Source: Candidatus Micrarchaeota archaeon
GTDB lineage: Archaea > Micrarchaeota > Micrarchaeia > Anstonellales > Bilamarchaeaceae
DNA length: 64,000 nt
Direction of reading: 5' to 3'
Assembly (NCBI GenBank): GCA_023129075.1
Contig: JAGMCT010000002.1
Coordinates: 67,077-131,076 of the forward strand
Shown here in pieces: positions 7,915-58,500 of this stretch (positions within the stretch are counted from its first letter, which is position 1; the number at the start of each line of letters is the position of its first letter). Position numbers and translations under genes: made by a program. A model generated the notes under the pieces. The model did not search any database. It was given only the letters and a program-made list of their open reading frames with translations, and had not been told where the DNA came from.

Positions 7915-7939
7915 GTTTTCTCCTTCTTTGAAAATGGAT

Positions 7940-8040
7940 GGGCCTGTGGAGATTTGAACTCCAGACCTTCGGCTGTCTTAGACCTATATTAGAGGAGGCC
8001 ATATAAGACCGGCGCTCTAACCAGCCTGAGCTACAGGCCC
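7940..8040 (-). tRNA. Intron-containing tRNA of Ile/Met type whose deduced spliced anticodon is UAU (tRNA-Ile(UAU)). The 27-nt intron lies at the canonical 37/38 position
   Basis: Reverse complement GGGCCTGTAGCTCAGGCTGGTTAGAGCGCCGGTCTTATA[TGGCCTCCTCTAATATAGGTCTAAGAC]AGCCGAAGGTCTGGAGTTCAAATCTCCACAGGCCCA. Acceptor and T arms are perfect. The anticodon stem is CCGGU/GCCGA with one C.A mismatch. The D-arm is near-identical to the CAU tRNA at 42251. Confidence 0.6.
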
Positions 8041-8175
8041 ATTATGGAATTTTATAAGCATGTGATGATTTAAAAAGCATTCGTCTTTTCCAACAGTCCA
8101 AGTTTTAGAAGAAGAAATCTGCACATTCTCCTTTTTTCCGATAGTTTTTTTAATTCCACGCAGTTATATTCTATT

Positions 8176-8583
8176 ATGGCATTCAATTTCAAGGCTTTCA
8201 CAAAAAAAGTCCTTTCTTTGTTAAAAGGAAAAATCAGTCCAGATGAGATTACCATACTTTCACATCTTTTTAATAAGACAAGCAAAAAGAACCGCATCCT
8301 TGCAACAGGAATTCTTTCTGTCTTGAAGGTTGGCGGTGCAACAAAAGACGATATCATGAAGTTTTCCACTATTCTTGATGAGGCAAACAATAGAATAATG
8401 CAGGAGAAGCTTCCGTTCACTAAGAAAGCTGAAAAAGAACTTGCAAAGATTTTCTCAAAAACAAAATTTCCTCAGAAGGCAAGGCGCACGTTCAAGCACG
8501 ACCTTGATATACCTCTTACCTCAGCAATAAACGAAAACATCCGAAGAAAAAAGAGAGTACCACGGAAAAAATTTTCCAAGTGA
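8176..8583 (+). CDS. Hypothetical protein (135 aa) with a basic C-terminus, immediately upstream of the LAGLIDADG gene
   Basis: Coding-like purine-rich composition. The overlapping minus-strand ORF 8070..8420 looks like an antisense artefact. Confidence 0.45.
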   Translation: MAFNFKAFTKKVLSLLKGKISPDEITILSHLFNKTSKKNRILATGILSVLKVGGATKDDIMKFSTILDEANNRIMQEKLPFTKKAEKELAKIFSKTKFPQKARRTFKHDLDIPLTSAINENIRRKKRVPRKKFSK

Positions 8584-8587
8584 GTCC

Positions 8588-9160
8588 ATGAAAATAAAGC
8601 TTACACCCGAACTCTCTTACATTATAGGATTATGGGGGCCGGTAAGAACAGAAGAAGGAATAGGGGTTGAAGGAGACGATGAACTTCTCTCAATTTTTTC
8701 ATCCGAAATTATAAAATTGGGTCTTGCCGAACCTAATAGAATCCAACATCGTGAAGGAAAGATTTTTTTCTATCATTCAGCGTACAGAAAGTTTTTTCAG
8801 GATGTGTTGAAAAATAAGGCAGACAGGTTTAAGTATAAGAATAAATACATGGCAAATTATCTTGCAGGCCTTTTTGATTCATGCGGTATGATAGATAGCA
8901 AAGGACTGGTTTTTTTCACCGTCAACGACCTTGTGCTGGAATCCATACTTGATGGAATAAATTTCAAGCCCAAGAAGAAAAAACAAGGTATAATGATAAG
9001 AGACCCATTGAAATTTCTTTCATTCATAAAACCGCTTCTTAAAAAAGATTACCCTTTACTAGATAAGATTTATGGAAAAGAGCAAGATACTAAAACAGGG
9101 ATTCGTCGAAGCAGAGGTAAGAACAAGCGGAATGCTCCAAAAAAGAAAATTCAGGATTGA
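8588..9160 (+). CDS. Free-standing LAGLIDADG-family homing-endonuclease-like protein (double-motif, I-DmoI-sized). The first motif is degenerate
   Basis: Motif 2 is ANYLAGLFDSCGMIDSKG. Motif 1 is LSYIIGLWGPV at residues ~9-19, about 80 aa upstream. The 190-aa length is typical of small archaeal LAGLIDADG enzymes. Confidence 0.5.
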   Translation: MKIKLTPELSYIIGLWGPVRTEEGIGVEGDDELLSIFSSEIIKLGLAEPNRIQHREGKIFFYHSAYRKFFQDVLKNKADRFKYKNKYMANYLAGLFDSCGMIDSKGLVFFTVNDLVLESILDGINFKPKKKKQGIMIRDPLKFLSFIKPLLKKDYPLLDKIYGKEQDTKTGIRRSRGKNKRNAPKKKIQD

Positions 9161-9323
9161 TTATGAGAATATTGTTTATGGAAAACTTCCTGTTGTAGTA
9201 ATAGACATAATTCTTCCGATGGGGGAGCTCATAGGATTAGCAGGTAAATTGGATATTGCGTTGAGGTCAGGTCCAAATCTTATAATACCTCCCGGAAGGA
9301 AGGAGAGAGAGCTGGTTGTATGA
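9072..9323 (+). CDS. Small hypothetical protein (likely start at M 9132) overlapping the LAGLIDADG gene end and the thyX start
   Basis: ORF with a hydrophobic core (KLPVVVIDIILPMGELIGLAGKLDIAL). A 4-nt overlap with thyX suggests translational coupling. No family recognised. Confidence 0.3.
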   Translation: MEKSKILKQGFVEAEVRTSGMLQKRKFRIDYENIVYGKLPVVVIDIILPMGELIGLAGKLDIALRSGPNLIIPPGRKERELVV

Positions 9324-10657
9324 AGAGGAGGGTCTATACTTTAGATGGTTATCCTGAAGAGCTTATTGCAGTTGCGTTTGCAAAAACCAGCAGAAGCCCT
9401 GAACCATTTGATAAAATTGTGGCAGAACTCAATGAGATAAAATCCAGGGAATTTCATGAGAAATGGGTTGTTGGCTATGGACATTCCAGCGTCGCTGAGC
9501 ATGCTGTTATCCATCTTGCGGTTGAGAATGTTTCAAGACTGGCGGTAGAGGTTATAGAAAGCACACGGCTTGCTTCTTTCACAGAGAAGTCAACAAGATA
9601 TCAAAAGATATCTTCAGAAGAATGTTATGTTCCTGCAGAGCTTTCCTCTTCAAAACAATCCTATCTTGAAGCAAAGGAATGTTTATTCTCAGTTTATGGA
9701 ATCCTAATGTCTGATTTGATAAATTATTATACCTCGCAAAATCCAGAATTAAAGAAAAGGGCTGTTGGAGTAAAGGCGATGGACAGCGCCAGATTTCTTC
9801 TTCCAAATGCAACCCTTGCTAATGCTGGGATTACAATAAATGCAAGGTCTCTTGAGCATCTTCTTGTAAAAATGCTTTCCAATCCATTGAGGGAAGTGCA
9901 GGAGGTTGGAGAAGAGATGAAACAAGCGGCTTTGAAGACAGCTCCAACGCTGATAAAATACGCAAACGAAAACCCATATTTAGTTTCGTTGGATAAAGAA
10001 TTCCCGCAGATGTTTTCAGGGCTTTCTTCAAGCGATAAAACAAAAGTAAAACTTATTTCTTATGATGAAGAAGGGGTTGAAAAGCTGATTGCCGCCCTTG
10101 TTTACAGGTACAGCAGTCTTTCCTATGAAGAAGCCCTTGCCTATTCAAAAGACCTTAATTCATCGGAAAAAAATAAAATCCTTGAAATAGGATTAGGAGG
10201 GAGGGGAAAGTACGACCATCCGGCAAGGGAATTTGAACATACTACCTTTACCTTTGATATTATCATGGACCAGGGTGCATATTATGAATTCAAGAGGCAC
10301 AGAATGCTTTCACTTTCCTGCAAAAAGCCGGATATTAGTTTGGGCTATAGAATTCCCGAGGACATAATAAAAATAGGAAAGGAAAAGGAATTCAAAGATG
10401 TACTGCAAGAAGCAGAAGATGCATTCAGGGAAATAGAAAATGAGAATCCTTATGCAGCAGGATATATAGCAACCAATGCGCATTACAGGAGGGTTCTTGT
10501 TAGCATGAATCTCAGGGAGCTATTCCATTTCATAAGACTGAGGAGAAAACCAAATGCACATTTTACTATAAGGGAGATAGCAGAATCCATGAGGGATGAG
10601 TTGAGAAGGGTTCATCCTGAGCTTGAAAGATATCTGCTCTTGGAGGGAGAAGAATGA
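9320..10657 (+). CDS. thyX: Flavin-dependent thymidylate synthase ThyX, a tandem-duplicated (fused pseudo-dimer) form
   Basis: Two ThyX-like halves. The first is HSSVAEHAVIHLAVENVSRLAVEVIESTRLASFTEKSTRY, with the RHR motif degenerate. The second has the canonical KRHRMLSLS (RHRx7S) motif. 445 aa versus ~220-250 aa for a canonical ThyX. Confidence 0.75.
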   Translation: MKRRVYTLDGYPEELIAVAFAKTSRSPEPFDKIVAELNEIKSREFHEKWVVGYGHSSVAEHAVIHLAVENVSRLAVEVIESTRLASFTEKSTRYQKISSEECYVPAELSSSKQSYLEAKECLFSVYGILMSDLINYYTSQNPELKKRAVGVKAMDSARFLLPNATLANAGITINARSLEHLLVKMLSNPLREVQEVGEEMKQAALKTAPTLIKYANENPYLVSLDKEFPQMFSGLSSSDKTKVKLISYDEEGVEKLIAALVYRYSSLSYEEALAYSKDLNSSEKNKILEIGLGGRGKYDHPAREFEHTTFTFDIIMDQGAYYEFKRHRMLSLSCKKPDISLGYRIPEDIIKIGKEKEFKDVLQEAEDAFREIENENPYAAGYIATNAHYRRVLVSMNLRELFHFIRLRRKPNAHFTIREIAESMRDELRRVHPELERYLLLEGEE

Positions 10658-11898
10658 AGATAAGTTGTTTTGGTGCAGGAAGAGAAGTAGGCAGAAGTGC
10701 ATTTCTTCTGCAGACAGATGTTAATATACTGCTGGACCATGGAATAAAGTTATTCGGAGCAAAAAGAGGAGCAGCATACCCTCTTCCTTTTCAGGTTTCT
10801 CTGGATGCAGTGATAATCTCACATGCACATCTTGACCACAGCGGTTTTCTTCCTTATCTTTATCCTCATCCAGTCTCCTTTAATTGGTTTGCAACAAAGC
10901 AGACAGTAGAAATCTCCGAGGTGTTGTGGAATGATTCCATGAAAATAATGGGGGATGAGCTTCCTTACTCCAGAAAGGAGAAGGATTTTGCATTAAAAGC
11001 ATTCGTGCCCATAGATTATAATCAAAAGGTTTTCATAGGAAAAACCTCCTTTTATATGACTGATGCAGGGCACATTCTGGGTGCTGGAATGACGCATCTT
11101 GAGCATGAAAAGAAAAGAATAACATATACAGGTGATTTTAAGATAGAGGAAACCCTATTGCATAAAGGCGCGGTTCCGGAAAAAACAGATGTCCTTATTA
11201 TAGAAACGACCTACAGCAATAGAGAGCATCCCAAAAGAGATGAAGCGGAAAAAACAATTATAGAAAAAGTGAAACAAACACTTGAAAAAGGAGGTTCTGT
11301 TTTGTTTCCTTCATTTGCTGTTGGAAGGTCTCAGGAATTAATAATGCTCATAAGGAAATATCTTCCTGATGTTCCTCTTTATCTTGATGGTATGGCAAGA
11401 ACAATAACCAACATCTATTCCAAAAATTCTTATCTTCTGAATGACGGGGAAAAATTCAAGGAGGATTTGCTTTCGGTAAATTTTATTGAGTCATCAGGAC
11501 AGAGGAGAAAGGCGGTTTCCAAGCCCTCCGTTATTATCTCAACAGCAGGCATGCTTCAGGGAGGTCCGGCACTAGGTTATCTCTTTAACATCAATGCTGA
11601 TTCAAGGATAATCTTTACTGGATATAATATTGAGGGGACCAACGGATGGAATCTCTTAAATCACGGGAAGGTTGAGATAGATGGAAACATGCTTGATGTT
11701 TCTCTTCCTGTGGATTACATAGATTTGAGCGCCCACGCAGGAAAAACAGACCTTTTGGATTACATTAAAAAAGCACAACCCTCAAAGATAATATTAAATC
11801 ATGGGGACAACCCCCAGGAATTCGGGCAGGAATTAAGGGAAAAAGGATATGATGCTGTTGCCCCGAAGATTGGTGACATTATCGAGGTGAATATATGA
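10654..11898 (+). CDS. Beta-CASP family metallo-beta-lactamase ribonuclease (aCPSF2/RNase J-like, no KH domains)
   Basis: Motifs HAHLDHSG, TDAGHILG, IIETTYS, HGDN and LSAHAG (beta-CASP motif B). Confidence 0.75.
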   Translation: MKISCFGAGREVGRSAFLLQTDVNILLDHGIKLFGAKRGAAYPLPFQVSLDAVIISHAHLDHSGFLPYLYPHPVSFNWFATKQTVEISEVLWNDSMKIMGDELPYSRKEKDFALKAFVPIDYNQKVFIGKTSFYMTDAGHILGAGMTHLEHEKKRITYTGDFKIEETLLHKGAVPEKTDVLIIETTYSNREHPKRDEAEKTIIEKVKQTLEKGGSVLFPSFAVGRSQELIMLIRKYLPDVPLYLDGMARTITNIYSKNSYLLNDGEKFKEDLLSVNFIESSGQRRKAVSKPSVIISTAGMLQGGPALGYLFNINADSRIIFTGYNIEGTNGWNLLNHGKVEIDGNMLDVSLPVDYIDLSAHAGKTDLLDYIKKAQPSKIILNHGDNPQEFGQELREKGYDAVAPKIGDIIEVNI

Positions 11899-42250: not shown

Positions 42251-42378
42251 GCCAAGGTAGCTCAGTCTGGTTAGAGCGCCAGACTCATAAGGGATTATGA
42301 GTTCTGAGGCAAATGCCTATGATTGAATAGGCGCTCTGAGTAATCTGGAGGTCGGGGGTTCGAAGCCCCCTCTTGGCA
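42251..42378 (+). tRNA. Intron-containing tRNA with anticodon CAU (elongator tRNA-Met, or tRNA-Ile2 if the UAU tRNA call is wrong). The intron is ~55 nt in the anticodon loop
   Basis: GCCAAGGTAGCTCAGTCTGGTTAGAGCGCCAGACTCATA[...intron...]ATCTGGAGGTCGGGGGTTCGAAGCCCCCTCTTGGCA. Anticodon stem CCAGA/UCUGG. T-arm GGGGG-TTCGAAG-CCCCC. No archaeal-initiator features (no A1:U72, no triple GC in the anticodon stem). Confidence 0.75.
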
Positions 42379-43373: not shown

Positions 43374-44336
43374 ATGAAATCCAAGATCATTAATCCATTC
43401 TTAGTCGTCCTAACCTTCTCATTCTTTTTAATCAGCGGATGCATAGATGATAGAACCGAAACCGGAGCTCCTGGCTGTGATGGCGGTGGATGGGTACCCA
43501 CAGGCTGTCTTGGCAAGTCCCTAATAAAGAACATAACTGTTGAGCCTGCTGTTGCGTGCCTGAAGGTGGATGCAAACAACTGCAACGGCGGCATACTGGG
43601 TATTGAAAATAAGTGCGATGTAGATTTTAAGATTGGCGGCCAAACAATTTATGCCCATTCCTACCAGACCGTTGAGTTTGTAAGAAATGCTGAAGGAGAG
43701 ATATTTGTTATTGAACCCCACGGAAATTTTGATTCCTACAATCCAGAAGATGAAGATTTCCTAAGTTTTAAAGGAACTCTTGGAGAAGAGGAGATTACAA
43801 TCTCCTATTTGAAGAAAAATGTTTGCGGAACTGCAAAAACACCAGACATTGGCGGTGTTTCCTTGGAGATGTTTAAGACCAATTTTGACCCCAGCGAGCC
43901 CGTCGAAGCCTTCGTTGAAGCCGACAAAATGTTTTTTACTGGTTTTCCTGCTTTTGAGGTTTACCAACTGATTGATGAAGAATGGCATTATGTTGATATC
44001 TACGACTTCTTCTGCGCTCTGCCCTGCTCAGCTAACATAAGCGAGATTTGCGGAGGACCGATAGCATGCGCCCCGCTCCCACTCCATTGCATGGATTTTG
44101 ATTTTCTTTCCGATAACTTTGAATGGGACCAGACAATCCTGAAAATCCGCACTATTGAATGCCCTGATTCAAACGAAACAGCGATTTGCTCTTTTGAAGA
44201 AAAGGCCGAACCAGGCACCTACAAATTTGTTTTCCAATATTCCACAAACTGTATTAATACCGAATTTTTCTATGCGGAAGAAAATAATGTTCAAACTATT
44301 GAAAAGACCTTTGAGATTACCCCCAGTGCAGAATAG
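43374..44336 (+). CDS. Secreted Cys-rich lipoprotein-like protein (lipobox-like LISGC)
   Basis: Signal peptide with FFLISGC. About 24 Cys in 320 aa. No known domain. Confidence 0.5.
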   Translation: MKSKIINPFLVVLTFSFFLISGCIDDRTETGAPGCDGGGWVPTGCLGKSLIKNITVEPAVACLKVDANNCNGGILGIENKCDVDFKIGGQTIYAHSYQTVEFVRNAEGEIFVIEPHGNFDSYNPEDEDFLSFKGTLGEEEITISYLKKNVCGTAKTPDIGGVSLEMFKTNFDPSEPVEAFVEADKMFFTGFPAFEVYQLIDEEWHYVDIYDFFCALPCSANISEICGGPIACAPLPLHCMDFDFLSDNFEWDQTILKIRTIECPDSNETAICSFEEKAEPGTYKFVFQYSTNCINTEFFYAEENNVQTIEKTFEITPSAE

Positions 44337-44359
44337 TGAAAGAGCGAATGAACAACTCT

Positions 44360-45673
44360 TTAATTCCGATAATCAAATCCAAATAACCCAACCAGCAAAA
44401 GAAATGCAAGAGGAATACTGCACACATCATTAAAATTGTTCAAATCAACACTACCTTCTCCTATCTTTTCAATAGCAATCTCACTTTTTGATTTTCCTTT
44501 TTTTTCTATAATTATACTTCCATCTATTTCATTGTAACCAGTTTTAATCATAAAAGGAATCGTATGTATAAAATTATCCTCAAGCGCACTCTCATTTATT
44601 TCATAATAAACTGTTTTTAGTTCTCCAGGATTCATGAGAATAAAACTGTAATCATTCCCGTGCACATTTTCATCTATTACAAGTTTCATACATACCGGCA
44701 GATATCTATTCTTTGTATTTTTCATATAAATTTCAAGTTTCTGTTCTGTTGATTCATACACAAAGTCTATATCTATTGGCCCGTCTCTTTCATAGCTGTT
44801 TAATTCTGTTATTTTAACATCACTTTCCATTTCGAACCTGCCTCCCCTTGCACTCATCTGGTCCCCCATCTTTTTCTGGTCTTCTGCATTTGCCATTGCA
44901 ATATGCTCCCCGCTTAGGATACCCATCTCAAAAAATGTTGGGTCAACCGAAATCCATTTTCCATCAATCTTTATTTCTGCCCATGAATGAGACTGCCATC
45001 CTTCCTCCCCTTTTACATATCCTGATACTACATTACCTTCAAATCCTATGCTCTTTGCAAGCGCCAGGAACAGGTGTGAATATTCAACACACACACCCTT
45101 CTTATCCTGAAAGATTTTTTCCGCAGATTCAAATGTTCCCCAATACCCAAGGTCATACTCAAGATTATTGTGCACCCACTCAATAAGTTTTCCTGCAGTA
45201 TCCACCTGCCCTTCTGCTTCCCTTGTTATCTCAATTGCTTTCTGCTGCATTTCCTCAGTATATAAAGTCAGACCGCTTCCATTTACCGGTTTTCCACCCA
45301 ATTCAGGATTCTGCTCAAATCCATCTTCATATTCAATCTCAACCAGACCCCATACCCAAACCTGTTTTTCATCTTCCACCTCTGGAATCTCAAAGATTAC
45401 TCTTATTTCTGTATTATTCCTTTCAAACCTGCATTCATCAGAACATTTCATTTCAATTACTTTTTGGTACGAGGTATTAAGCAAAAAAATAGCATCTATT
45501 TCTATATCACTGATTTTTTCATCAGTCTTTATATTTATTGTTTTATTTATTTCTGCTTTCATATATCCTGTGTTTGCCACTATTATTGTTATAACCAGAA
45601 AAAGCATGAGGACTCTTTTCATGACTTTCTTTTTTTCTTTTCTCCTTTTAATTCTTTCTTTTTCTTTCTCCAC
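44360..45673 (-). CDS. Secreted/membrane-anchored transglutaminase-like cysteine-protease-fold enzyme. An alternative start at M 45622 would give a 4-nt overlap with the giant-gene stop
   Basis: Catalytic-core pattern GVCVEYSHLFLALAKSIG...SHSWAEIKIDGKWISVDPT (Cys-His-Asp). N-terminal signal anchor. Confidence 0.65.
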   Translation of the reverse strand: MEKEKERIKRRKEKKKVMKRVLMLFLVITIIVANTGYMKAEINKTINIKTDEKISDIEIDAIFLLNTSYQKVIEMKCSDECRFERNNTEIRVIFEIPEVEDEKQVWVWGLVEIEYEDGFEQNPELGGKPVNGSGLTLYTEEMQQKAIEITREAEGQVDTAGKLIEWVHNNLEYDLGYWGTFESAEKIFQDKKGVCVEYSHLFLALAKSIGFEGNVVSGYVKGEEGWQSHSWAEIKIDGKWISVDPTFFEMGILSGEHIAMANAEDQKKMGDQMSARGGRFEMESDVKITELNSYERDGPIDIDFVYESTEQKLEIYMKNTKNRYLPVCMKLVIDENVHGNDYSFILMNPGELKTVYYEINESALEDNFIHTIPFMIKTGYNEIDGSIIIEKKGKSKSEIAIEKIGEGSVDLNNFNDVCSIPLAFLLLVGLFGFDYRN

Positions 45674-48600
45674 AACAACAGCACCATAAAAAATATTATT
45701 TCAACATCAAGCATTGAGCAGGGATTGAATATATTGCCTGCCAGCCAGTTTCCATACAAGCTCCATCCAAATAGGAACGGAAGCGAGAATAATATCGGAA
45801 TAAATAGAATACCAATTCCAAGCATGCGCCCTTTCTTTTTCTTGTATTTCCTGCCCAGCAGATGTAAATTGAGAATAAATAGAATAACCATAGCAGTCCA
45901 CAGAATCCATGCACTGCTTTTTGGTATGTTATACAGCCCAAGACACAAAGGCCCTGAGCACATTCTCTCAAACTCACCTATAGATAACCCCTCATCCATT
46001 ATTGCATATCCGTCTTTATGTGCCTGCACAAGGTATTCCCCAGGTTCGCTGAAAGTAAGATATATCTCTCCCTTTTCATTTGTCTGGTATTCAACCTTCC
46101 CAAGACACATAGGTCCGGTACAAATCTTTGCGGTTTCCAGTTTTCCTGCTTCATCTGTTACTATGTATCCTCCATACTCGTCAAGGGTTATATAAGCCCC
46201 TTCTTTCTCAAATGTGTACCCCACCCTGTTTATCACCACAACAGCATTTGGAATTGGATTTCCTTTACTGTCTACAATAACAATCCAGGTCCTTTCATTA
46301 AGATAAATTTCATCCTCTGTTTGCACAAAACCTTTTCTTATTATCTCAAAAATCTTTTTCAGATCAAGATAGTTCTCCTTTTCTACGATTATTTCTCCTT
46401 TATATGAAATTATTACCCTTGCAATTCCCCCCTCACCAGCATAAGTATCAGTATCTTCATTATAAACATGTGCAAAAGGAACAGGCTCCCCCCTATTATT
46501 TATAATCTCCATTATTACTGTTTTTCCTTCAATAAGCTCCCCTTCAATTATCTTTAAATCCATCTCCTTTGGAACGCATGAATTATTTATGCAGAATTCT
46601 GTTTCCTTACATTCATAACCAGGTATTCCTTCACAGCACTCGTATTCTCTGCAGTCGTGGTTAAGTATGATTCCGCAAGCACAATCTATCTCAATACACA
46701 TACCTTCATTACAGTATTCATTCCATTCACAATCTCCATTCTCCTCGCATTCTATACACACTTCATCACAGAGATTGCTTTTGCACATTGCATTCCTTTC
46801 GCAGTCCTCTTCCAGTTCTCTTTTCTCTTCGCATATTATACCATTACAAAATTCGTCCTCTGCACAATCACTGTCATTGTAGCACTGAGGTATTACCTCA
46901 AAATAAAATTCATAATAATCATCGGCCCTTCCATTATCTGCAAGAACCTTAATTAGATATTCCCCCAACTCAGTTGGATAAACACCAAGCGCAATCTCTC
47001 CACTCTCCTTCTTTTCTATTTCCTGTATGAGCCCATCGCTTCCTGTTATTGACGGCGGGGTTACAAGCTCAACAAATATATCTTTTTCATCATAATTCCC
47101 AGTATTTTCTATAACCACAGCAACCAAGGTATTCTTGTATATTATTCCTTCCTCCGGTTCCGCAGAAATTATCTCTATCTTATGCTTCTTTTTATGGTCT
47201 TCTTCCCCCCCTGCTTCCTCAAGCGTTACATACCATGTTTGGTTAACCTCTTCATAAAGCGTTTCCAGCACCACCACAATTTCATATTCCTGAAGCGCAA
47301 GTCCATCCACATTCCATGCATATGTGCTCGTATCATTGGTTCCTGATGTTTCATTGTACTCAGCACCATCTACATACCACCTAATTACTACTTCGCTTGA
47401 ATTTTCATAGGTGATTATGAAATCCTGCACATCTGAATTCTCTATTGTTATATTTATTGGCGTGTCTCTCTCATAATCTCTTGTCCCCATATTCTCATCA
47501 GGATAAACAGTCAATATTCTTACACTCAGCGGAATATCACAGCTGTCCTTATATCCATCATCATCCATATCTGCAAATAAGCAGGTCCACTTCTCTCCGT
47601 TCGTTCCGGTTCCCTGGGCCGTAAGATTTGCACACAGGAAGAACACTTTTGATGCTGAGCTTACCTCATCCCCTTCAGCATCCGTCACGTTAATATAAAG
47701 CTCATACATTTCATCCTGCGCAGGTGCATTTATGGTTCCAGAGCATTCTACTCTGTCTGTCCCCACAACCACTGCAGGCAGATTCCCTGCAAGCTGGTCT
47801 ACCCCCCCGCTTTTCTTATAATACACCTGGCAGTTCGCTATCACTGTTGAGTCATCCGTCCTAAACTGTGCACTCACATCAATTGTATCGCTTATATTAT
47901 ACCAGACATCACTCAGGCTGAATGAACCGCTTACATATGCAGGCTTCAAATCCACAACAAACGAAGTTGTATTCATAAGCCCATAATTCCCTGCAGGGTC
48001 TCTTGCCCTTACACTCACATAATAGGTTCCGTCATCCACCATACTCCCTATATTGAATTTACAATTAGAGTCATAGGTTTCTCCAATAGAATATCCCCCC
48101 GGCCCTGTTGCATTATAATAACACCCATAAATCTCCCCGTCATGGAAGTTCGTATTTGCAGTATCACTGTCATTTGCAAGAACCCCCATCCATACTGCTC
48201 CATTATACACAATTTCGTCCTTAACACCCGGTTCTGTAACTATCCTCGTTATATTCGGCGCATCATCATCCAATATTAAATAATACGGGAAATTCTCTGA
48301 TGTTGCTCCCCCAGGATTGATGCTGTGCGAATACTCAAATTTCTTATAACTCCCAACATCAGCATAGCTGTAAGCAGAGGTTGTTGGAATCCTTATCGTC
48401 ACATCAAACCCATTATAGGTTGTTCCCAGGTGGTCATCATCCCATAATTTAATTACAGCCTGCCCTGCATTATCCTCATAAGAAAATGTTTCAAATATTC
48501 CTGCATCCGGCCCTTCTTTTGTCATCCCGGCCAGGTTCAATCCCTGCCCGTGCGAAAGCCCAAACCCATTTTTATTTCCAATAAACATCTTCACCTGGTC

Positions 48601-51600
48601 AAAACTCTCTGTGCTTGTAAGCCTTATCAAAAAGTCATTTCCTGTCCGCACCCTTCTCGGATAAGTCATGGTTACCTGGTTCCCTGGGCCTCCATATGTC
48701 ACAGTAATATTCTGCTCATCATATAATGTCCCATGCAGTGTTGAATCCACCCTGCATACAACATCATTTACACAATCACCATCAACACAATCCACAACTC
48801 CATCCCCATCATTATCAACATCATCATTGCATGTTGCTTCTGCAGGATTTTCGCATGCTCCTATTCCATTACAGTTTGCGTCTGCACAATCCGCATTCCC
48901 ATCATTATCATTATCCGCCCCATCAGAACAGAAATATGCATTGTTCTCATTTCCTCCAGCCACACAAATATGTGCATCGTAATCCACCAGCCATCCTACA
49001 CAATTTGTATCTCCACAATCAGTTCCCCCGCCATCAAACCTATCATAATCATTATCAAAACTATCCGCACATGAATCCCAGCTCACATTCTCTTCATCCG
49101 GGCACGGTCCGCAGTAGTCAAACTGCTGCCAGCAGTCCAAGTCATCACAGTCCGCTTTCACAGGAGGATAGGTTCCTTTATAAACATCTGTCGGCAGTGG
49201 GTCATCGTCCACCCCATTCTCACAATACGTCCAGTTCCTAAGCAGATTGTTAAAGAAAGGAGTCGCCCCAGTCGGGTCATATTCCATGTCAAGACACATC
49301 TCAAACGGATTGTTCGGATTCTGAACCCCTGTACAATTCATATCCCCGCAGTCAACCCCTCCAGATGCATTCACAATCCACGGACCACCTCCCCAAAAGT
49401 TTGCAGGATTTGTCCATTTATATGCATCCATATCATTATCCACATCATCAAAACACCATGAATCCTGAACATTTTCAACTGCAGGAACCGCCCCATCAAA
49501 CTGGCAGTCATAATCATCATAATCTCCATCATTTACGTATACAATCCCATAATACGCCAGATAAGCAGAAGGATTGTTTCCCCATCCAGGATTCGGCATC
49601 CCGCCTGCATTCCCATCATAATCATTATCAAATCCATCATTACAGGTAAGCTCTCTGCTCAATTCACAGGTATTTCCGCCTCCCATTACCGTAGTGTTGC
49701 AATCCTCATCCGGATACCTGTCGCTTCCATACCCGTAATAACCTCCCCATTCACAATCCATTCCTGCCCCATAACTATTGTTTATTGCATACCCAAATAT
49801 TCCTGCTTCCAGCCATTTATCCCAGTCATTATCTACACCATCATCACACTGCACCCCAACTTCAGTAAATATAGTAAAGTTCTGCTGGCAGAAAAACCTG
49901 CAGTCATACTCTGCATCATTATATCCACCCCCTCCCTGCAATTGACAATCCAATAAATTATACATATCATTATCAAAATTGTCATCACACGTAAGTTCTC
50001 TTCCATACTCACACCTATGATAAGGAGGAGTAGGCTCTGTCACCAAGTTGCAGTCCAAATCCCTGCAGTCCACCAAACTCAATCCTGGATTCACATGCCC
50101 CCAATTCGAATCCTCCATAGCCCAGTCATTATTATACTCATCAAAACAACTCTCATTCCCCAGCAGTTCACTTGCATAACCGCACAGCCCATAGGTAAAT
50201 GCACCAATATAATCATTCCATGCAGAAGGCCCCCAGCTTGCATTACAATCCAAATCATAACAATCATAAGAAGACTCGTAAAAACAATTCTGCTCATTCC
50301 CTGCACAGTTCAGATAATCAAAGTCTGCATTCTCAGTATCGTTGCATGAGCCCCAGTTCACCCCCTCAACCCAGATATCATCCTCATGTTCATTTGTTGA
50401 GTTCCATTTTCCCCCAGGGCTTCCCCCATAGCTCTCATTATCAAAATAAATAGGCACACTAACTGTTTCAGAATATACTGTAATCCCCTGCACATATGTC
50501 ACAGTAATATTTATCTCATACCCCTGGCTCATATCTATTGAACCCGGGTCCGCAAAACTCAAGTTGAATGTTGTATCTATCTTTGCAATCGTCTGGTCAT
50601 TGTCAAATGATTTTAGTATAACCTCATTCTGCCTTGTGTTCGCAGGCCCAAGAGAATCTGTTAATATAGGATTACTATTCTTATCAATAAAATAAAGCAG
50701 TTTCCCTTCATTTGCTGTCGCTCCCGGCGCATACTTATTAACCTGCTCAATATCCGGGAACCCCTCAACATTTACTGTTGTAAGATAACTATTTCCTGCA
50801 TTTATCTGCCATGCCCTAATTCTCATCTTGAATGTTCCGTCCGGCATTGAATGCATAGTATACCATATATTAGTGCTGAATGTTACTGCAGTGCTCTGCT
50901 CCTTTCCAATATCCCCAGCAGGTATATTTACAGCCAGCGTTCCATGCGAACCCGAAGGAGAATAATACAAACTTGAATTAGCAAATGCCTGTTTCACCAA
51001 ACAAGAATATGTAATCCCCCTGCAGTCCGAATCAAAGCAGTCCACAAAGGTATCATCCTCAGCAAAATCCGCAAACCCAGGCGCCCCAATTGCAGAATCT
51101 ACCCCATCATTGCACCATTCCTCCACAGAAATCCCATTATATTTTGTAACAGAATAGGTAACATCCCCAGGCCCATCCGCCTTTACAGTATTCCTAAAAT
51201 ACTGCGCCTCAATACTCTTTCCGTTGAATGCATTTGCTATATCCGCAGAGCTCCAGTTCAAAGGATGCACATGTATTCTCCAGTTTGTCTTATAGCTCTC
51301 TTTTACTGTTCCCCCTCCATCTATTACCTCGCATTTATCTATCTCCCACGGCACATAAATAGAGGTATTCCCTCCCATGCTTGTATTTATGGAATCCGTT
51401 ATCTGCAGGGAATAATTAAGCGAAACATTCTCACTATTTATCCCCCCCGCCCCAATGGTTCTGTTCAGGAAAAATCTTGTGCAGCTGCTGTTGTAAGGAT
51501 GGTCCCCGCAGTCCGACTGATTTATCCAGCATCCAACTTTATCCCCGGCATTCGCAGTCATATTTTCCAATATAATAGTAAAATTATACTTCAACCCTTC

Positions 51601-52335
51601 TCCAGTATGCGGGTCCCCTGCATCATATGCATAATAAACTCCCTCAGGAAATGTTGTATTCTTTTCTATACATTCATACTGAACATCTGCAAAGAGCCAG
51701 TAATCCACTGTCTGCCCTGCAAGGCTTCCATTCACCGGAAGTATGAGCTGGTAATCGCTTGTTGTTCCGTTCCAATCCGGCTTATCATCCTCATATGTTG
51801 CAGAAAGCACAAACCTATTTTCTGCATCCTGTAGATATCCTGCCCTGAAAATACCTGGTTTGGTATATGCAGAGGGAACATTACTCACTTCCCCAAAGCT
51901 GAAATTAAATGTTGAGACAAAAGTAAATGTATTGCTCGCATTATCCGCATCTGTTCCCGCGTTCATAAAAGCATTAAGTGCAATGAGATTTCCTGCACTA
52001 AAAGGAGTTGCTGCACTGCTTTCATTTACTGCATAGATAGTAACATTAATTATATTATAACCTGTTATTACGCCCCCGACCGCAGGACAATCCGGCTCTT
52101 TTGCCGTCACATCCAAATAGGTTATGTTCTCTCCTTCAGCCAGCACATGATAGTAATCCGGCCCACCACCTATTGAGATATTCCCATAAAAACCAGCCCA
52201 TCTCTGCGTAGTATCATTTCCCTGAAGGTTTACTGCAGTTATATTTCCCCCCTCAGTCAAATCTACATTCGCCCCATAAAGTAGAGAACAGAGCAGCACA
52301 AACACCAATACAAATCGCATGCCTGCATATTGCAT
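45619..52335 (-). CDS. Giant (2238 aa) secreted cell-surface protein. It has an N-terminal shared domain, extensive Cys/Asp-rich TSP3-like putative Ca-binding repeats (CxDxxDNDxDG...DCxDxDC), a C-terminal Cys-rich EGF-like cluster, and 3-4 C-terminal TM helices plus a poly-K tail
   Basis: Single uninterrupted ORF. Signal peptide MRFVLVFVLLCSLLYGA. At least 9 CxDGxDNDxD repeats. C-terminal TMs (ILWTAMVILFILNLHLL, GIGILFIPILFSLPFLFGWSL, IIFFMVLLLW). Confidence 0.75.
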   Translation of the reverse strand: MQYAGMRFVLVFVLLCSLLYGANVDLTEGGNITAVNLQGNDTTQRWAGFYGNISIGGGPDYYHVLAEGENITYLDVTAKEPDCPAVGGVITGYNIINVTIYAVNESSAATPFSAGNLIALNAFMNAGTDADNASNTFTFVSTFNFSFGEVSNVPSAYTKPGIFRAGYLQDAENRFVLSATYEDDKPDWNGTTSDYQLILPVNGSLAGQTVDYWLFADVQYECIEKNTTFPEGVYYAYDAGDPHTGEGLKYNFTIILENMTANAGDKVGCWINQSDCGDHPYNSSCTRFFLNRTIGAGGINSENVSLNYSLQITDSINTSMGGNTSIYVPWEIDKCEVIDGGGTVKESYKTNWRIHVHPLNWSSADIANAFNGKSIEAQYFRNTVKADGPGDVTYSVTKYNGISVEEWCNDGVDSAIGAPGFADFAEDDTFVDCFDSDCRGITYSCLVKQAFANSSLYYSPSGSHGTLAVNIPAGDIGKEQSTAVTFSTNIWYTMHSMPDGTFKMRIRAWQINAGNSYLTTVNVEGFPDIEQVNKYAPGATANEGKLLYFIDKNSNPILTDSLGPANTRQNEVILKSFDNDQTIAKIDTTFNLSFADPGSIDMSQGYEINITVTYVQGITVYSETVSVPIYFDNESYGGSPGGKWNSTNEHEDDIWVEGVNWGSCNDTENADFDYLNCAGNEQNCFYESSYDCYDLDCNASWGPSAWNDYIGAFTYGLCGYASELLGNESCFDEYNNDWAMEDSNWGHVNPGLSLVDCRDLDCNLVTEPTPPYHRCEYGRELTCDDNFDNDMYNLLDCQLQGGGGYNDAEYDCRFFCQQNFTIFTEVGVQCDDGVDNDWDKWLEAGIFGYAINNSYGAGMDCEWGGYYGYGSDRYPDEDCNTTVMGGGNTCELSRELTCNDGFDNDYDGNAGGMPNPGWGNNPSAYLAYYGIVYVNDGDYDDYDCQFDGAVPAVENVQDSWCFDDVDNDMDAYKWTNPANFWGGGPWIVNASGGVDCGDMNCTGVQNPNNPFEMCLDMEYDPTGATPFFNNLLRNWTYCENGVDDDPLPTDVYKGTYPPVKADCDDLDCWQQFDYCGPCPDEENVSWDSCADSFDNDYDRFDGGGTDCGDTNCVGWLVDYDAHICVAGGNENNAYFCSDGADNDNDGNADCADANCNGIGACENPAEATCNDDVDNDGDGVVDCVDGDCVNDVVCRVDSTLHGTLYDEQNITVTYGGPGNQVTMTYPRRVRTGNDFLIRLTSTESFDQVKMFIGNKNGFGLSHGQGLNLAGMTKEGPDAGIFETFSYEDNAGQAVIKLWDDDHLGTTYNGFDVTIRIPTTSAYSYADVGSYKKFEYSHSINPGGATSENFPYYLILDDDAPNITRIVTEPGVKDEIVYNGAVWMGVLANDSDTANTNFHDGEIYGCYYNATGPGGYSIGETYDSNCKFNIGSMVDDGTYYVSVRARDPAGNYGLMNTTSFVVDLKPAYVSGSFSLSDVWYNISDTIDVSAQFRTDDSTVIANCQVYYKKSGGVDQLAGNLPAVVVGTDRVECSGTINAPAQDEMYELYINVTDAEGDEVSSASKVFFLCANLTAQGTGTNGEKWTCLFADMDDDGYKDSCDIPLSVRILTVYPDENMGTRDYERDTPINITIENSDVQDFIITYENSSEVVIRWYVDGAEYNETSGTNDTSTYAWNVDGLALQEYEIVVVLETLYEEVNQTWYVTLEEAGGEEDHKKKHKIEIISAEPEEGIIYKNTLVAVVIENTGNYDEKDIFVELVTPPSITGSDGLIQEIEKKESGEIALGVYPTELGEYLIKVLADNGRADDYYEFYFEVIPQCYNDSDCAEDEFCNGIICEEKRELEEDCERNAMCKSNLCDEVCIECEENGDCEWNEYCNEGMCIEIDCACGIILNHDCREYECCEGIPGYECKETEFCINNSCVPKEMDLKIIEGELIEGKTVIMEIINNRGEPVPFAHVYNEDTDTYAGEGGIARVIISYKGEIIVEKENYLDLKKIFEIIRKGFVQTEDEIYLNERTWIVIVDSKGNPIPNAVVVINRVGYTFEKEGAYITLDEYGGYIVTDEAGKLETAKICTGPMCLGKVEYQTNEKGEIYLTFSEPGEYLVQAHKDGYAIMDEGLSIGEFERMCSGPLCLGLYNIPKSSAWILWTAMVILFILNLHLLGRKYKKKKGRMLGIGILFIPILFSLPFLFGWSLYGNWLAGNIFNPCSMLDVEIIFFMVLLLWRKKKKELKGEKKKRKS

Positions 52336-52542
52336 AAATTCATTTAAACTAAGTCTCTTAAAAAAGGTTTCTAAAACACATTTTCATATTAAATAACAAA
52401 TAATTTAACAGCAAATAATTTATTTTGGAATTCATTTTAATAGAATATTAGTTCTATTTTATGTGTTTATACTGCTCTTTCTTATCTTTCCCAACAATAA
52501 ATAACCCTAACCTTTAAAACGCCCCTTGATATTACTTTAGTG

Positions 52543-55500
52543 ATGTTGGGTTCGAAAAGTGGCTTAGGATTAGCACTATTGCTATTCATTCTTGCTTTAC
52601 TCCAACCAATCTCCGACACCACTTTCACAAAAACAATAAACATTTCCTACTTCGAGAGTATGGAATCTGATTTCTCTAATCTGCAGGTTTTTTCGATTTC
52701 CGACGAAGGCGCAGAACCCCTTGTTTATACTATTCTGGAGTATTCCCCAGGAGAATGGGCGCTCCTGGAAATTTCAATCCCTTATGACAGCGAAAGATTA
52801 CTTTTCACCCATTTCTTACTGGATAATTACGAGCCGGTAACCATCAGCGGAAAAGAAGTAAAATACTATTTTGAGAAAATAAATGGAGCTGGATACATAA
52901 GATTAAAGGATTCTTTTATAGAAAACATCACGATCCACAATATCTCCGCTTCCTCAAACATAGAGATATTCAAAGACATTATTGTTTCCAATGATGAGCT
53001 TGAAAACCTAAGAGCATTTTCCTTTAACCCAAAGAATATAGAATCCGCAGAGATATCTATAATTGCAAAAGGTTATTTCCTTTTCAAATGCAAAGACTGG
53101 AATTACACCACCCAGTCCTGCCAAGGAGAATGGGAATACCAGTTCCCCATAACCCCTGGAAAACCCTACACAATCCACCTCAATTCTTTAGACCCCGGCT
53201 ATGCTGAATCAGGCCCGTTCATTGCTTTTGACGACCGCGGTCTAACCGTAACCTCCAATGTTTATTCTTCAGATAATGTTTATGCAAACAAAAAGGCCAG
53301 TATTAGTTATTGGGTAAACGGCACTTGGAACATGGACATTCTTGGAGACCTAAACAGCGCCAACTTCAAATGTGAATTAAAGGTAGATTTAGCAGCCTTA
53401 GGAACCCTTTACCATGAATGGTTCAACTCTTCCTCTTCTTCCTGGAAAACAATCTGCACAAAATCAACCACTATTCAAATTACAGATACCACTCATAGTT
53501 GTGATGTTTCTTCTGATTTGAATACATCTGAATCCTCCCATACTCTGAGATGCAGGATTGCTTTCCTTCTTTTAAAAGATATTTCAATAGATTATATTTC
53601 TCTTGATTCTGATTTCCAATGTGTAAACCTCTCCAATCCCTCAACCTATCAAAACAGAGTAGTAAACATGAGCGGAATCTACTACATAAACGATAACGTA
53701 ATCCTATGCACAGATAATTATTCAACCACTGATGATTTAATCCGAATAAATGCTTCTTCCATTACTTTAGATTGCGGAGGTTCAACATTAGATGGAGATG
53801 ATGCGGGGAGTGATTACGGGATAGATACACAGCAGAATAATTACTTAGAAATAAAAAATTGCATAATTACTGATTTCAGAAGCGGTATTTACACAGATGC
53901 TAATTACAGTAATTTCACCAACAACACTGTTTATTCTAATATTGAAGGTTTTTCTGTTGTATCCTCTTCAAACAACAGTTTCACAAACAATACTGCACAT
54001 AATAACCTTAAATGCGGTTTTTCCCTCTCATCATCCTTAAACAACACTCTCACAAACAATACGGCCAATTCCAATCAGGATGGTTTTCACCTTCAATCCT
54101 CCTCTATTTACAATACTCTCATAAACAACACAGCGCAGGAAAATCTTGGATGTGATTTAGTAATTGCAATTTCCACAGCAGGAGACTGCAACAATCTTAT
54201 TGAGAATAATACTGGTTCTGGCGGCAGGCCAATTTTGTACGCAAATGAATCAGTCACATGGAGCAATTTAGAAGCATCAGAGGTTATTCTATGCAATGCA
54301 GATTATTCAGTCATCACTAATGTAACTGTAAAGGGTTCTGATGCTTTAGATAACAATTATTTCTTACTCTACCATTCAGATAACCTTTCAATATCCGATT
54401 CAAGCTCCGTAAATAATCTTTATGGTTTTTACGCTAGTTATTGCTCGCATAACAATTTCACCAATAATACTGCCAATTCAAACAATAATTATGGCTTCTA
54501 CATTCGCTACGGTTCTAATAATGCTTTCACTAATAATACAGCCAATTACAATAATTATGGCTTCTATATTCGTTCTTCACCCAGCAACATTTTCACAAAT
54601 AATACTGCTGATTCAAATGATAACTATGGCATTTACCTTTATTCTACCTCCGACAATAAGCTGACTAATAACACTGCCAGCATGAACGGTCGGTGTGGTT
54701 TTACCCTTTACTCCTCTTCAAACTATAATACCCTGGCTAGCAACACTGTTAGCTCAAATGAAAGGTCTGGTTTCTATTTTTACTCTTCCTCAGGCAATAA
54801 TATATCCAACTCAATAATTATAAACAACTCACAGCGTGGAATGCACCTGTACGGAAATTCAGATAATAATACATTTGAAAATATAACACTACATGGTAAT
54901 GCCCAGTCTTCTTCTTATTATGAGATTTACTTTGACCGCAGCGGAGTAATTTACCCAGAATACAATACCTTTACAGATATAAAACTCTACAATTCCACAA
55001 GATACATTGGATTTGACGACCAAACCCATACAAACCAAAACAACTTCACCAACCTTTCCATATGCTACAATTCCACAATAGGCTGCATAAATTGGGACTT
55101 CCTTAATCTCACTTATGCAAACCTTGCAAATGCAACAACAATAATCCTTGACCCAGAATTCATTTCCCTAAACACCTCAAACACAGGAGCAGCCCAATTC
55201 AATTCCTCTGCAAACATAACTATTTATGCTGAGGACTGCGCACACCCAATTTACAAAGCTTCAAATTTTCCAGATTCAAGAGATTCAATTCTCTCTTCCG
55301 GCTCTAAAGTTAACCCCATATACAATACCTGTTCAAATAATATTGCAGTATTTTCCACAGTAAATGATTTCTCAGGATATACAAAAGGATATGTTGGCTG
55401 TGTAAACCTTTCCAATCCCTCAACCTACCAAAACAAAGTAGTAAACATGAGTGGAATCTATTACATAAATGATAATGTAACCCTATGCACAGATAATTAT

Positions 55501-58500
55501 TCAACAACTGATGATTTAATCCGAATAAACGCCTCTTCTATTACTTTAGACTGCAACGGTTCAACATTAGATGGAGATGATGCAGGGGATGATTATGGAA
55601 TAGATACACAAGGAAATGATTACCTGGAGATAAAAAATTGCATAATTACTGATTTTGAAAGTGCAATATCTGCAACAGGCACAACCTACAGCAATTTCAC
55701 CAATAACACAGCCATTTCAAATACTGATGGTTTTATTGCTTCTTCTTTTAATTTTAATATTCTCTTAAACAATACCGCTACTTCAAACACAAAACATGGT
55801 TTCCACATTTCTTCTTCTTCCAATAATATTTTCACCAACAACACAGCCCAGCATAATGGCTATGGTTTCGGCATCTATACCACATCCGAGTATAATACCT
55901 TCACTAACAACATAGCTTATAGCAATAATGCTGGCGGTTTTTATCTTCGCACTTCAACCTACAGCATTTTCACTAACAACACAGCCAGTTCAAATAGTAA
56001 TGGTTTTTATTTTTACTCATCTTCAAGCAATAATATATCCAACTCAATAATTATAAACAATTTAAATCGTGGAATATACCTGTACAGAAATTCAGATAAT
56101 AATACATTTGAAAATATAACACTACATGGCAATGCCCAATCTTCTTCTTATGAGATTTACTTTGACCGCAATCTTGCGGATTATCCTGAACACAACACCT
56201 TTACAGATATAAAACTCTACAATTCCACAAGATACATTGGATTTGACGACCAAACCCATACAAACCAAAATAATTTCACCAACCTTTCCATATGCTACAA
56301 TTCCACAATAGGCTGCATAAATTGGGACTTCCTCAACCTCACTTATGCAAACCTTGCAAATGCAACAACAATCATCCTTGACCCAGAATTCATTTCCCTA
56401 AACACCTCAAATGCCGGAGCAGTCCAGTTCAATTCCTCTGCAAACATAACCGTAGAGGTCGTTTCCTGCATAAAACCTGCCGAATTCATAATAAGAAGAT
56501 TAACAGAATTCCCGCAAAGCAAAAACATCATACTGACCAGCGGGCAGGATTATGATCCAACATCTATATCCTGCCCTTCTTCCACATCCATTAAGTTCAA
56601 TATTTCTTCCTTCTCAGGCTTTGCTCCATTGAAAGCAGGAATCACAGATTGCTATACCATAGCTCATCCCGGAGACTACTGGATAGTAGATGACATAGAC
56701 GCAAGCTCTGTAAATGAAGTTTCTGCACGCGCCTGCATAAATATATCTTCAAGTAATGTCAACCTCAACCTCAACGGCTTCTCAATAGCAAACGGTTCAA
56801 ACATAAGCGGCATCTTTGCAAACGGTTCAAGCTCATATCAGTATACTAATATAACCATCCGTGATGGAACAGTAACGAACTTCACCCACAACAGCACCAT
56901 CGGCCCGGCATATATCGGAGGAATCATATTTACTTATATAGAGAATTCAAGTCTCTCAAACCTATCAGTAAGCTATGCTTCAAAACAAACCCCTGCAAAG
57001 GTTTCCACATATGGAATATTCTTTGATGGGAGCTCTTATAACTCCATTCTCAACCTTACGGTGCACAACAACGAACAAAATGGAATTAGAATTGAATCCT
57101 ATTCAAACTACAATAATTTCTCAGATATAATATCCTTAAGTAACATAGGGACTGGAATCCGAATCTCCTCAAGCCTAAACAACAGAATAGACCAAAGCAC
57201 CATATACAGCAATTCAGGAAGAGGAATCCATCTAGACTCCTCAAATTACACCATGGTCTTAGATACCCTTACTTATGATAACAGCTATGGCATCTCCTTA
57301 ACCTCAACCTCAAACAACACCCTCACCAACATCACCAGCCACACTAATTCCAACGGCGGTTTTTACTCTTCTGCAAGCTCCGGAAACAACATAACAAATA
57401 TACTATCCTACAACAATACCCAAGAGGGTTTCTTCATCACAACCTCCCATTTCAATAAATTGGAAAACATAACAACCTACACTAATTCCAGAAGAGGTTT
57501 AGTGCTTTTTTTGAGTAATTACAACACTCTTGAAAATATCACTACATACAATAACCCCTGGTACGGCATTTTTATCTCTTCTGCCTCCAACAACAACCTC
57601 ATCAACATTACCTCCTATAACAATTCCCAACACAGCCTTTACATATACGCAAATTCAGACAATAATATATTCACAGATTTAACATTCTATGAGGATGGGA
57701 AATCTCCTTCCTATTATGAGGTTTACTTTGGCCGCAATGGAGTAATTTACCCGGAATACAATACCTTTACAGATATAAAACTCTACAATTCCACAAGATA
57801 CATTGGATTTGACGACCAAACCCATACAAACCAAAATAATTTCACCAACCTTTCCATATGCTACAATTCCACAATAGGCTGCATAAATTGGGACTTCCTC
57901 AACCTCACTTATGCAAACCTTGCAAATGCAACAACAATAATCCTTGACCCAGAATTCATTTCCCTAAACACCTCAAATGCCGGAGCAGTCCAGTTCAATT
58001 CCTCTGCAAACATAACTATTTATGCTGAGGACTGCGCACACCCAATTTACAAAGCCTCAAATTTCCCAGATTCAAGAGATTTAATTCTCTCTTCCGGCTC
58101 TAAAGTTAACCCCATATACAATACCTGTTCAAATAATATTGCAGTATTTTCCACAGTAAATGATTTCTCAGGATATACAAAAGGATATGCTGGCTGTGTA
58201 AACCTTTCCAATCCCTCAACCTATCAAAACAAAGTAGTAAACATGAGCGGAATCTATTACATAAATAATGACGTAATTCTATGCACAGATAATTATTCAA
58301 CAACTGATGATTTAATCCGAATAAACGCCTCTTTCATTACATTGGACTGCAATGATTCTATTCTTGATGGAGATAATGCAGGGGGTGATGAGGGTATAAA
58401 CACACAACAGAATAATTACTTAGAAATAAAAAATTGCATAATTACTGATTTTGAAAGAGGCATATATCTATTTAATTCTACATACAATAGAATAGACAAT

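Follow-up and report, generated by a model that had tools for sequence, protein, structure and literature searches.

Is a gene that resembles a LAGLIDADG homing endonuclease and lies close to thyX a mobile element that has homed to a thymidylate synthase locus, or is it a resident gene of its host? The question is raised by a stretch of 64,000 nucleotides (nt) from a Candidatus Micrarchaeota genome (contig JAGMCT010000002.1), hereafter called the window, in which an open reading frame (ORF) of 190 amino acids (aa) is followed by a small ORF and then by a thyX gene of tandem structure. The original prediction, made from the letters of the DNA, took the 190-aa ORF for an I-DmoI-like endonuclease gene and considered that its product might be a nickase, a domesticated protein or a decaying enzyme. 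Our analysis makes it quite likely that the ORF encodes a domesticated and catalytically inactive protein of LAGLIDADG fold, most likely a non-cleaving nucleic-acid-binding core protein that is probably complexed with the product of the gene immediately upstream (the partner gene). The four ORFs originally named in this region were all found, all on the plus strand, as were the two amino acid strings that had been taken for LAGLIDADG motifs. The parts of the 190-aa ORF are as follows.

8588-9160, plus strand: LAGLIDADG-fold ORF, 190 aa, which begins 4 nt past the stop codon of the partner gene
8588-9067, plus strand: core of the protein (residues 1-160), with two alpha-beta-beta-alpha-beta-beta-alpha halves in the AlphaFold2 (AF2) model
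8618-8644, plus strand: motif helix 1, YIIGLWGPV (residues 11-19)
8858-8887, plus strand: motif helix 2, YLAGLFDSCG (residues 91-100)
9068-9160, plus strand: basic C-terminal tail (residues 161-190), disordered in the model

Only structure prediction, and not sequence search, exposed the LAGLIDADG fold of this protein. Pfam hidden Markov models, to which the original prediction had looked for confirmation, gave no match to the 190-aa protein even at E<=1, the curated thresholds of LAGLIDADG_1, LAGLIDADG_2 and LAGLIDADG_3 not being reached. NCBIfam returned nothing, phmmer and the family profile found nothing significant among all PDB sequences, and the alignment by hhalign of the family profile with I-DmoI (in a sequence identical to 1b24_A) had an E-value of 0.35. 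Matches to LAGLIDADG_3 were obtained for 17 of 31 relatives scanned singly, all of them below threshold (best E 8e-4), and it is because of such weak matches that a few family members carry the NCBI name 'LAGLIDADG family homing endonuclease'. The NCBI entry that is identical to the 190-aa protein, from a Candidatus Micrarchaeota metagenome-assembled genome, is named 'hypothetical protein'.

The AF2 model of the 190-aa protein, built on an alignment of 31 sequences, has a predicted local distance difference test (pLDDT) score of 84.9 and a predicted template modelling (pTM) score of 0.78. Its secondary structure is ordered in two alpha-beta-beta-alpha-beta-beta-alpha halves, with the motif helices at residues 7-19 and 86-99, and these two halves take up the whole of the conserved core of about 160 aa. 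When the model was compared with the PDB by Foldseek, the best 50 matches were all LAGLIDADG proteins (probability 1.00, template modelling (TM) scores of 0.5-0.6). The matches include PI-PfuI (E 2.6e-4) and dozens of I-DmoI chains (TM 0.50-0.56), as well as E-DreI, the bI3 maturase (2ab5, E 1e-3), I-Tsp061I and PI-SceI. As modelled, the fold is I-DmoI-like, namely monomeric with two motifs and pseudo-symmetric halves, and the original call is borne out by AF2 and Foldseek in this respect. The spacing of the motifs, which had also been considered I-DmoI-like, is similar but shorter, with 80 residues between G14 and G94 versus 96 between G16 and G112 of I-DmoI.

The catalytic metal ligands of I-DmoI, D21 (in LLGLIIGDG) and E117 (in IKGLYVAEG), are the eighth residues of their motifs. 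Aligned in this register, the 190-aa protein reads IIGLWGPVR and LAGLFDSCG, with V19 and C99 at position 8. The second motif, previously regarded as clear, is therefore present as a string but has Cys in place of the catalytic acid. The same situation recurs throughout the family, from which 258 proteins were drawn for residue tallies: position 8 of motif 1 is Asp or Glu in 6 of 238 proteins (the usual residues being R, S, A, C or N), and the equivalent position of motif 2 in 8 of 250 (usually V, C, S, A, R or T). As read from these sequences, the metal-binding acids are absent from both motifs family-wide, and both acids, the presence of which was to be checked by structure prediction according to the proposal made at the outset, are missing in the register given by the motifs and the predicted helices. 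With the canonical acids lacking in both motifs, nickase and double-strand endonuclease activities are therefore excluded as far as the canonical mechanism is concerned; the nickase that had been suggested on account of the degenerate first motif is not supported, because motif 2 is equally devoid of the acid.

One may still envisage a nuclease of non-canonical type, with an active site rebuilt from the position-6 Asp of motif 2, from further conserved acids or from amino acids that the partner supplies, the whole constituting a two-component endonuclease with a cellular role. The consensus Asp at this position is kept (as Asp or Glu) in 247 of 250 family proteins, family columns 117-118 hold a D-E pair almost without exception, and the partner is tightly coupled to the LAGLIDADG-fold gene. 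However, the position-6 Asp belongs to the ordinary LAGLIDADG consensus and presumably is not a metal ligand, judging from I-CreI D20 and I-DmoI D21/E117, while the window protein itself has L-E instead of the D-E pair and the partner shows neither a nuclease-like motif nor a fold match. We thus consider an enzyme of this kind very improbable.

The distribution of the gene then bears on whether it moves, decays or stays. A word-indexed search recovered 276 relatives of 165-175 aa with 45-54% identity. When 1.84 billion representatives were searched exhaustively with the family profile, only 124 proteins were returned, all of similar length (about 150-200 aa), and therefore the family is small and closed, without grading into ordinary LAGLIDADG enzymes. 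Its gene is present in at least 96 GTDB species-representative genomes. In the 80 loci that we kept for comparison, each from a different assembly, there is one copy per genome and a second copy in none; their taxon labels are Micrarchaeota, Micrarchaeia and Bilamarchaeaceae, with a few apparently of Iainarchaeum. A gene for a PurM-like AIRS protein lies upstream in divergent orientation in 51 of these loci, and that for threonyl-tRNA synthetase (ThrRS) downstream in 40. The mean Kimura distance of the LAGLIDADG-fold protein is 0.50 vs 0.45 for PurM, and the ratio of non-synonymous to synonymous substitution rates (dN/dS) is 0.118 for the core in comparison with the closest relative (locus L084, dS 0.38). 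Among these loci we found none of the signs by which a mobile element would be recognized, such as sporadic spread, insertion at a variable site or related genomes in which the site is empty. The gene belongs to the core of Micrarchaeota, where it occurs in single copy, is inherited vertically and is under purifying selection; it neither hops nor decays. Among the alternatives originally listed, it is domestication that conservation and purifying selection support. Housekeeping-like conservation at a fixed position, which had been named as the observation that would speak for a domesticated protein, is indeed seen, but the fixed position is that beside the partner gene and not that beside thyX.

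The notion of a decaying, non-functional remnant of an endonuclease could draw on the degenerate motifs and on the sequence of the window copy, which, together with its 88-90% identical relative, departs from near-invariant positions of the family (WRK to WGP, DE to LE and RLGF to GINF). It could also draw on the C-terminal tail, which appears unconstrained: residues 161-190 have a dN/dS of ~1.6 on 28 codons, the overlapping frame of the small downstream ORF showing 0.14, the AF2 pLDDT falls below 50 for residues 170-184, and most relatives end near residue 165-175. However, the ORF is intact in every genome, the core dN/dS of about 0.12 is at odds with decay, and 34 columns are invariant across 31 proteins sharing 40-50% identity. 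Decay is therefore refuted by the data on selection and conservation, and we attach hardly any probability to it. The window copy is rather a divergent sub-lineage within the family that is still under purifying selection.

Homing endonuclease genes often lie in or near thymidylate synthase genes, a circumstance that lends some appeal to the view of the 190-aa ORF as a mobile gene for an active, free-standing homing endonuclease or nickase that homed near thyX. The LAGLIDADG fold fits with this, as does the free-standing nature of the gene, which was correctly placed outside any intron or intein; moreover, LAGLIDADG endonuclease genes do occur in rRNA group I introns of Micrarchaeota (PMC6125680). 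Against such an enzyme stand the family-wide absence of both catalytic acids, the single syntenic copy in so many species, the low dN/dS with a rate similar to that of PurM and, finally, the arrangement of the thyX region itself, the features of which are listed below.

9072-9323, plus strand: orf83, 83 aa, the first 89 nt of which (9072-9160) overlap the 190-aa ORF
9320-10657, plus strand: tandem thyX, 445 aa, its start overlapping the stop codon of orf83
roughly 9320-9994, plus strand: ThyX half 1 (Thy1 residues 12-210)
roughly 9995-10657, plus strand: ThyX half 2 (Thy1 residues 245-434)
10654-11898, plus strand: gene for a beta-CASP/metallo-beta-lactamase protein, the last of the tight run of same-strand ORFs

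Only four of the 80 loci (L010, L042, L045 and L069) have thyX within 6 kb of the LAGLIDADG-fold gene, about 6 kb downstream. In metagenomes, where 53 tandem-thyX loci have 1.5 kb or more of sequence on their upstream side, neither this gene nor its partner was found there in any of them. The order in L010 and L069 is partner, LAGLIDADG-fold gene, NAD-kinase-like gene, a gene of ~1450 aa on the opposite strand, orf84 and thyX. In the nearest sub-clade, the gene pair and orf83-thyX are thus kept apart by a block of ~5.5 kb that the window lacks, no counterpart of the NAD-kinase-like or ~1450-aa genes having been found anywhere in its 64 kb. The compact gene order is found also in L084, the nearest relative of the window. 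(Of the two interposed genes, located at L010:1629-6640 and L069:4789-9856, the NAD-kinase-like one encodes about 235 aa with a GGDGT motif, and that of ~1450 aa is surface-protein-like). With thyX near in 4 of 80 loci and the gene upstream of none of the 53 thyX loci, the adjacency is therefore local to the lineage of the window; it is a lineage-specific rearrangement, and not the association of a homing endonuclease with thymidylate synthase that the original prediction had invoked. By the same token, an empty target site at thyX, which had been suggested as evidence to look for, does not apply, for the gene is never polymorphic there and lies ~5.5 kb away in the nearest sub-clade and in other parts of the genome in the remaining relatives. 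The 190-aa protein also lacks any match in PADLOC and any meaningful one in PHROG, and an origin from defence systems or viruses was accordingly rejected. The idea of an active homing endonuclease or nickase is close to refuted, and we give it scarcely any credit.

The small ORF that bridges into thyX was likewise present as described, but is not the spurious frame that it might seem. Homologs of orf83 lie directly upstream of thyX in L010, L042, L069, L073 and also L075 (28-34% identity, E 1e-9 to 4e-13 by tblastn), that of L073 being seen alone at the far end of the locus; L084 has the gene too, and its dN/dS is 0.14. No match was found in Pfam or PDB, and among 71 tandem-thyX loci that are more distantly related, orf83 is found upstream in only 3. 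It is a genuine conserved small gene linked to thyX in the sub-clade of the window.

The constant neighbour of the LAGLIDADG-fold gene is instead the partner gene, situated as follows.

8145-8154, plus strand: putative archaeal TATA-like box TTTTTTTAAT, read in the sequence 22-31 nt 5' of the ATG of the partner gene
8176-8583, plus strand: partner gene, 135 aa

Of 79 evaluable loci, 76 have a homolog of the partner gene as the next gene upstream, in the same orientation; the gap to the LAGLIDADG-fold gene is 21 nt at the median, and 4 nt in the case of the window. The partner family has 121 members, all unannotated and specific to Micrarchaeota, with a median isoelectric point (pI) of 9.9 (10.6 for the window protein) and a dN/dS of 0.16-0.17, indicative of purifying selection. 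In its AF2 model (pLDDT 60.6), the partner is all-helical with six helices and a disordered K/R-rich tail, and Foldseek with this low-confidence model found nothing below E=1. Searches of Pfam, PDB, PADLOC and PHROG gave no significant match either; similarities to thymidylate kinase (3hjn, E 0.02) and NNH6 (10 of 32 members, best E 3e-4) were dismissed as chance-level profile matches. In a mirror-tree analysis, the partial correlation of partner with LAGLIDADG-fold protein, given PurM, is 0.42, a value reached in 0 of 300 permutations, and the converse control is 0.26; that the two proteins co-evolve has thereby modest support. In 72 related loci, boxes of the TTTATTAA and TTTAAAAAT types are over-represented at positions -30 to -37 relative to the start codon of the partner, and with the similar box at 8145-8154 the pair therefore seems to have its own promoter, the TATA-like box being the probable promoter of the transcription unit.

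Distant members of the family (with E-values of about 1e-11 to 1e-35 when compared with the profile) are found in archaeal chromosomal contexts near ribosomal-protein genes and have no partner beside them; therefore, the pairing defines the core clade and not the whole family. Four of them (P0188, P0205, P0215 and P0237) share a C-terminal peptide, (L)P-GNERDPR, that is absent from the core clade and might be a short interaction motif standing in for the missing partner. In one core locus without the partner (L024:4864-6474, contig MNVE01000016.1), a 262-aa ORF upstream looks like a helix-turn-helix (HTH) protein of XRE type; the same contig also carries a group I intron of large-subunit (LSU) rRNA ~8 kb from the locus (PMC6125680).

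Taken together, these results point to a domesticated LAGLIDADG family that is found throughout its lineage, has a partner of its own and had not been described before. In the mechanism that we propose, the partner and LAGLIDADG-fold genes would be co-transcribed from the TATA-box promoter, and the LAGLIDADG-fold protein would associate physically with the small basic helical partner, its beta-sheet saddle binding DNA or structured RNA without cutting. Its cellular role might lie in chromatin or gene regulation, or in the handling of RNA. A plausible source of the family is the LAGLIDADG genes of Micrarchaeota rRNA group I introns (PMC6125680).

That group I introns are often present in Micrarchaeota rRNA genes (PMC6125680) can be read in favour of a trans-acting RNA maturase or chaperone. 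Such a protein would have a LAGLIDADG scaffold which, after losing DNA cleavage, aids structured RNA (a tRNA, an rRNA or group I introns of rRNA) in folding or processing, as the bI3 maturase of fungi does. Foldseek matched the model to this maturase (2ab5, E 1e-3), the family is basic (median pI 9.4) with many invariant aromatics in the YFYH..YRKFF segment, and its distant members lie near ribosomal-protein genes. Nevertheless, the gene lies outside introns, the scattered occurrence of group I introns contrasts with the near-universal presence of the protein in the clade, and the conserved synteny includes no RNA gene, the tRNA-Ile gene that neighbours the pair in the window not being conserved beside it in other loci. 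DNA binding fits the present data as well as RNA binding does. We consider a dedicated RNA maturase or chaperone unlikely and prefer the broader reading of a domesticated, non-cleaving nucleic-acid-binding protein.

Several observations weigh against this preferred reading. The equivalence of V19 and C99 with D21 and E117 was derived from motif register and predicted helices, and not from a residue-level superposition, and the invariant position-6 Asp of motif 2 together with the D-E pair at columns 117-118 might form a non-canonical site. The partner model is of poor quality (pLDDT 60.6), the mirror-tree analysis gave a modest signal from a small number of loci (n=23-26), and the absence of the partner beside distant family members and in three core loci indicates that it is not strictly obligatory. 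Moreover, no conserved long DNA site, of the kind that an autoregulatory target would constitute, was found upstream of the operon, a region where only the TATA box and the coding start of PurM are enriched.

The other gene of the locus, thyX, was described in the original prediction as encoding 445 aa with two fused ThyX folds, and this is confirmed by two full-length Pfam Thy1 (PF02511) domains at residues 12-210 (E 2.3e-30) and 245-434 (E 7.5e-25); the protein scores 117 bits with the TIGR02170 equivalog, the cut-off of which is 87.9. With the motif of H. pylori ThyX, RHRIASLSVKSSRY, as reference for both halves, half 1 reads STRLASFTEKSTRY (S-T-R-x7-S-T-R-Y), which has lost R and H while keeping Ser, Arg and Tyr, and half 2 reads RHRMLSLSCKKPDI (R-H-R-x7-K-P-D-I), which has kept RHR and lost Ser, Arg and Tyr. 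It had been claimed that only the second half retains RHRx7S; RHR is indeed found there, but Lys replaces the Ser, and it is half 1 that keeps Ser-x-Arg-Tyr. Neither half thus contains the complete RHR-x7-S(-x-RY) motif within one domain. The same complementary split is present in all 80 full-length tandem relatives (loci L091-L170, 43-56% identity), 389 relatives having been found in metagenomes.

This pattern of residues suggests that the tandem ThyX is a pseudo-heterodimer in which the ancestral active sites have been halved in number; two tandem chains would then likely assemble as a dimer that has two complete sites rather than four. As in the homotetrameric ThyX of T. maritima, H. pylori, M. 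tuberculosis and PBCV-1, each half is a full Thy1 domain, and the 445-aa polypeptide taken as a whole retains every conserved residue of the motif; unlike in those enzymes, two domains are fused in one chain with RHR-x7-S-x-RY split between them. The protein is, in this sense, a natural test of the number of active sites that a ThyX assembly requires. In 2009, a ThyX with duplicated domains was mentioned as occurring in Chloroflexi and a small number of other species and as 'not characterized' (PMC3224940), and no later characterization was found in the literature searched.

A bolder reading, which we regard as possible but rather doubtful, would see in the gene pair an undescribed two-subunit nucleic-acid-binding module of the core genome, with a probably essential part in, for example, the control of transcription, the maturation of rRNA or tRNA, or binding to chromatin or replication origins, and thus a two-polypeptide archaeal counterpart of WhiA; the same reading includes the tandem ThyX as a pseudo-heterodimer with half of the ancestral active sites.

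The Rfam scan of the window matched tRNAs only. Two of these contain introns and were missed by ARAGORN. The first, at 7939-8040 on the minus strand, has an anticodon loop CUUAUA indicating tRNA-Ile(UAU) with an intron of ~28 nt; tRNA-Ile with the UAU anticodon is uncommon among archaea. The second, at 42251-42378 on the plus strand, spans 128 nt. Over ~14 kb of the window (44000-58000), the GC skew is strongly negative (-0.19 to -0.39), being mostly positive upstream, and this probably reflects a long run of minus-strand genes.

To our knowledge, the domestication of homing-endonuclease scaffolds is known from only a few cases, such as WhiA, organellar maturases and HO-related proteins. The family reported here would be a lineage-wide archaeal case in DPANN, the small genomes of which hold many conserved genes annotated without function, and its co-evolving partner gives an experimental handle. 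Its recognition also guards against an error of annotation, for the NCBI name 'LAGLIDADG family homing endonuclease' wrongly suggests mobile DNA.

In comparison with known systems, the 190-aa protein shares with I-DmoI, I-Tsp061I and the endonuclease domain of PI-PfuI the overall fold, the size of about 165-190 aa and the joining of the halves through two motif helices, as well as the archaeal origin and, in its relatives, a faint LAGLIDADG_3 signal. It differs from this group in having no acids at the positions equivalent to I-DmoI D21/E117, and its gene lies outside introns and inteins, single-copy, syntenic, under purifying selection and accompanied by a dedicated partner gene. From I-DmoI in particular it is set apart by the lack of detectable profile-sequence similarity and by an inter-motif spacing that is 16 residues shorter.

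WhiA, a DNA-binding regulator of Gram-positive bacteria built on a degenerate LAGLIDADG scaffold (PMC3781837), resembles the new family in being a conserved cellular protein, lineage-wide and vertically inherited, that derives from a LAGLIDADG scaffold and has lost catalysis; DNA binding would be a further likeness. However, WhiA is bacterial and carries a C-terminal HTH, whereas the 190-aa family is archaeal (DPANN) and has a separate helical partner in place of any extra domain, and the Pfam models of WhiA (WhiA_N, LAGLIDADG_WhiA and HTH_WhiA) gave no match at E<=10 in any of 31 members. The yeast mitochondrial bI3 maturase (PDB 2ab5) is a structural match in which the LAGLIDADG scaffold likewise no longer cleaves DNA and has taken on nucleic-acid binding, as may be the case for the 190-aa protein; yet LAGLIDADG maturases sit inside the intron that they serve, whereas the 190-aa gene stands free among housekeeping genes, with protein-coding genes on either side at every locus. 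Because it has no HTH domain, matches no WhiA model and is not intron-encoded, the 190-aa family is a member of neither group, although WhiA and the LAGLIDADG maturases are its closest analogues.

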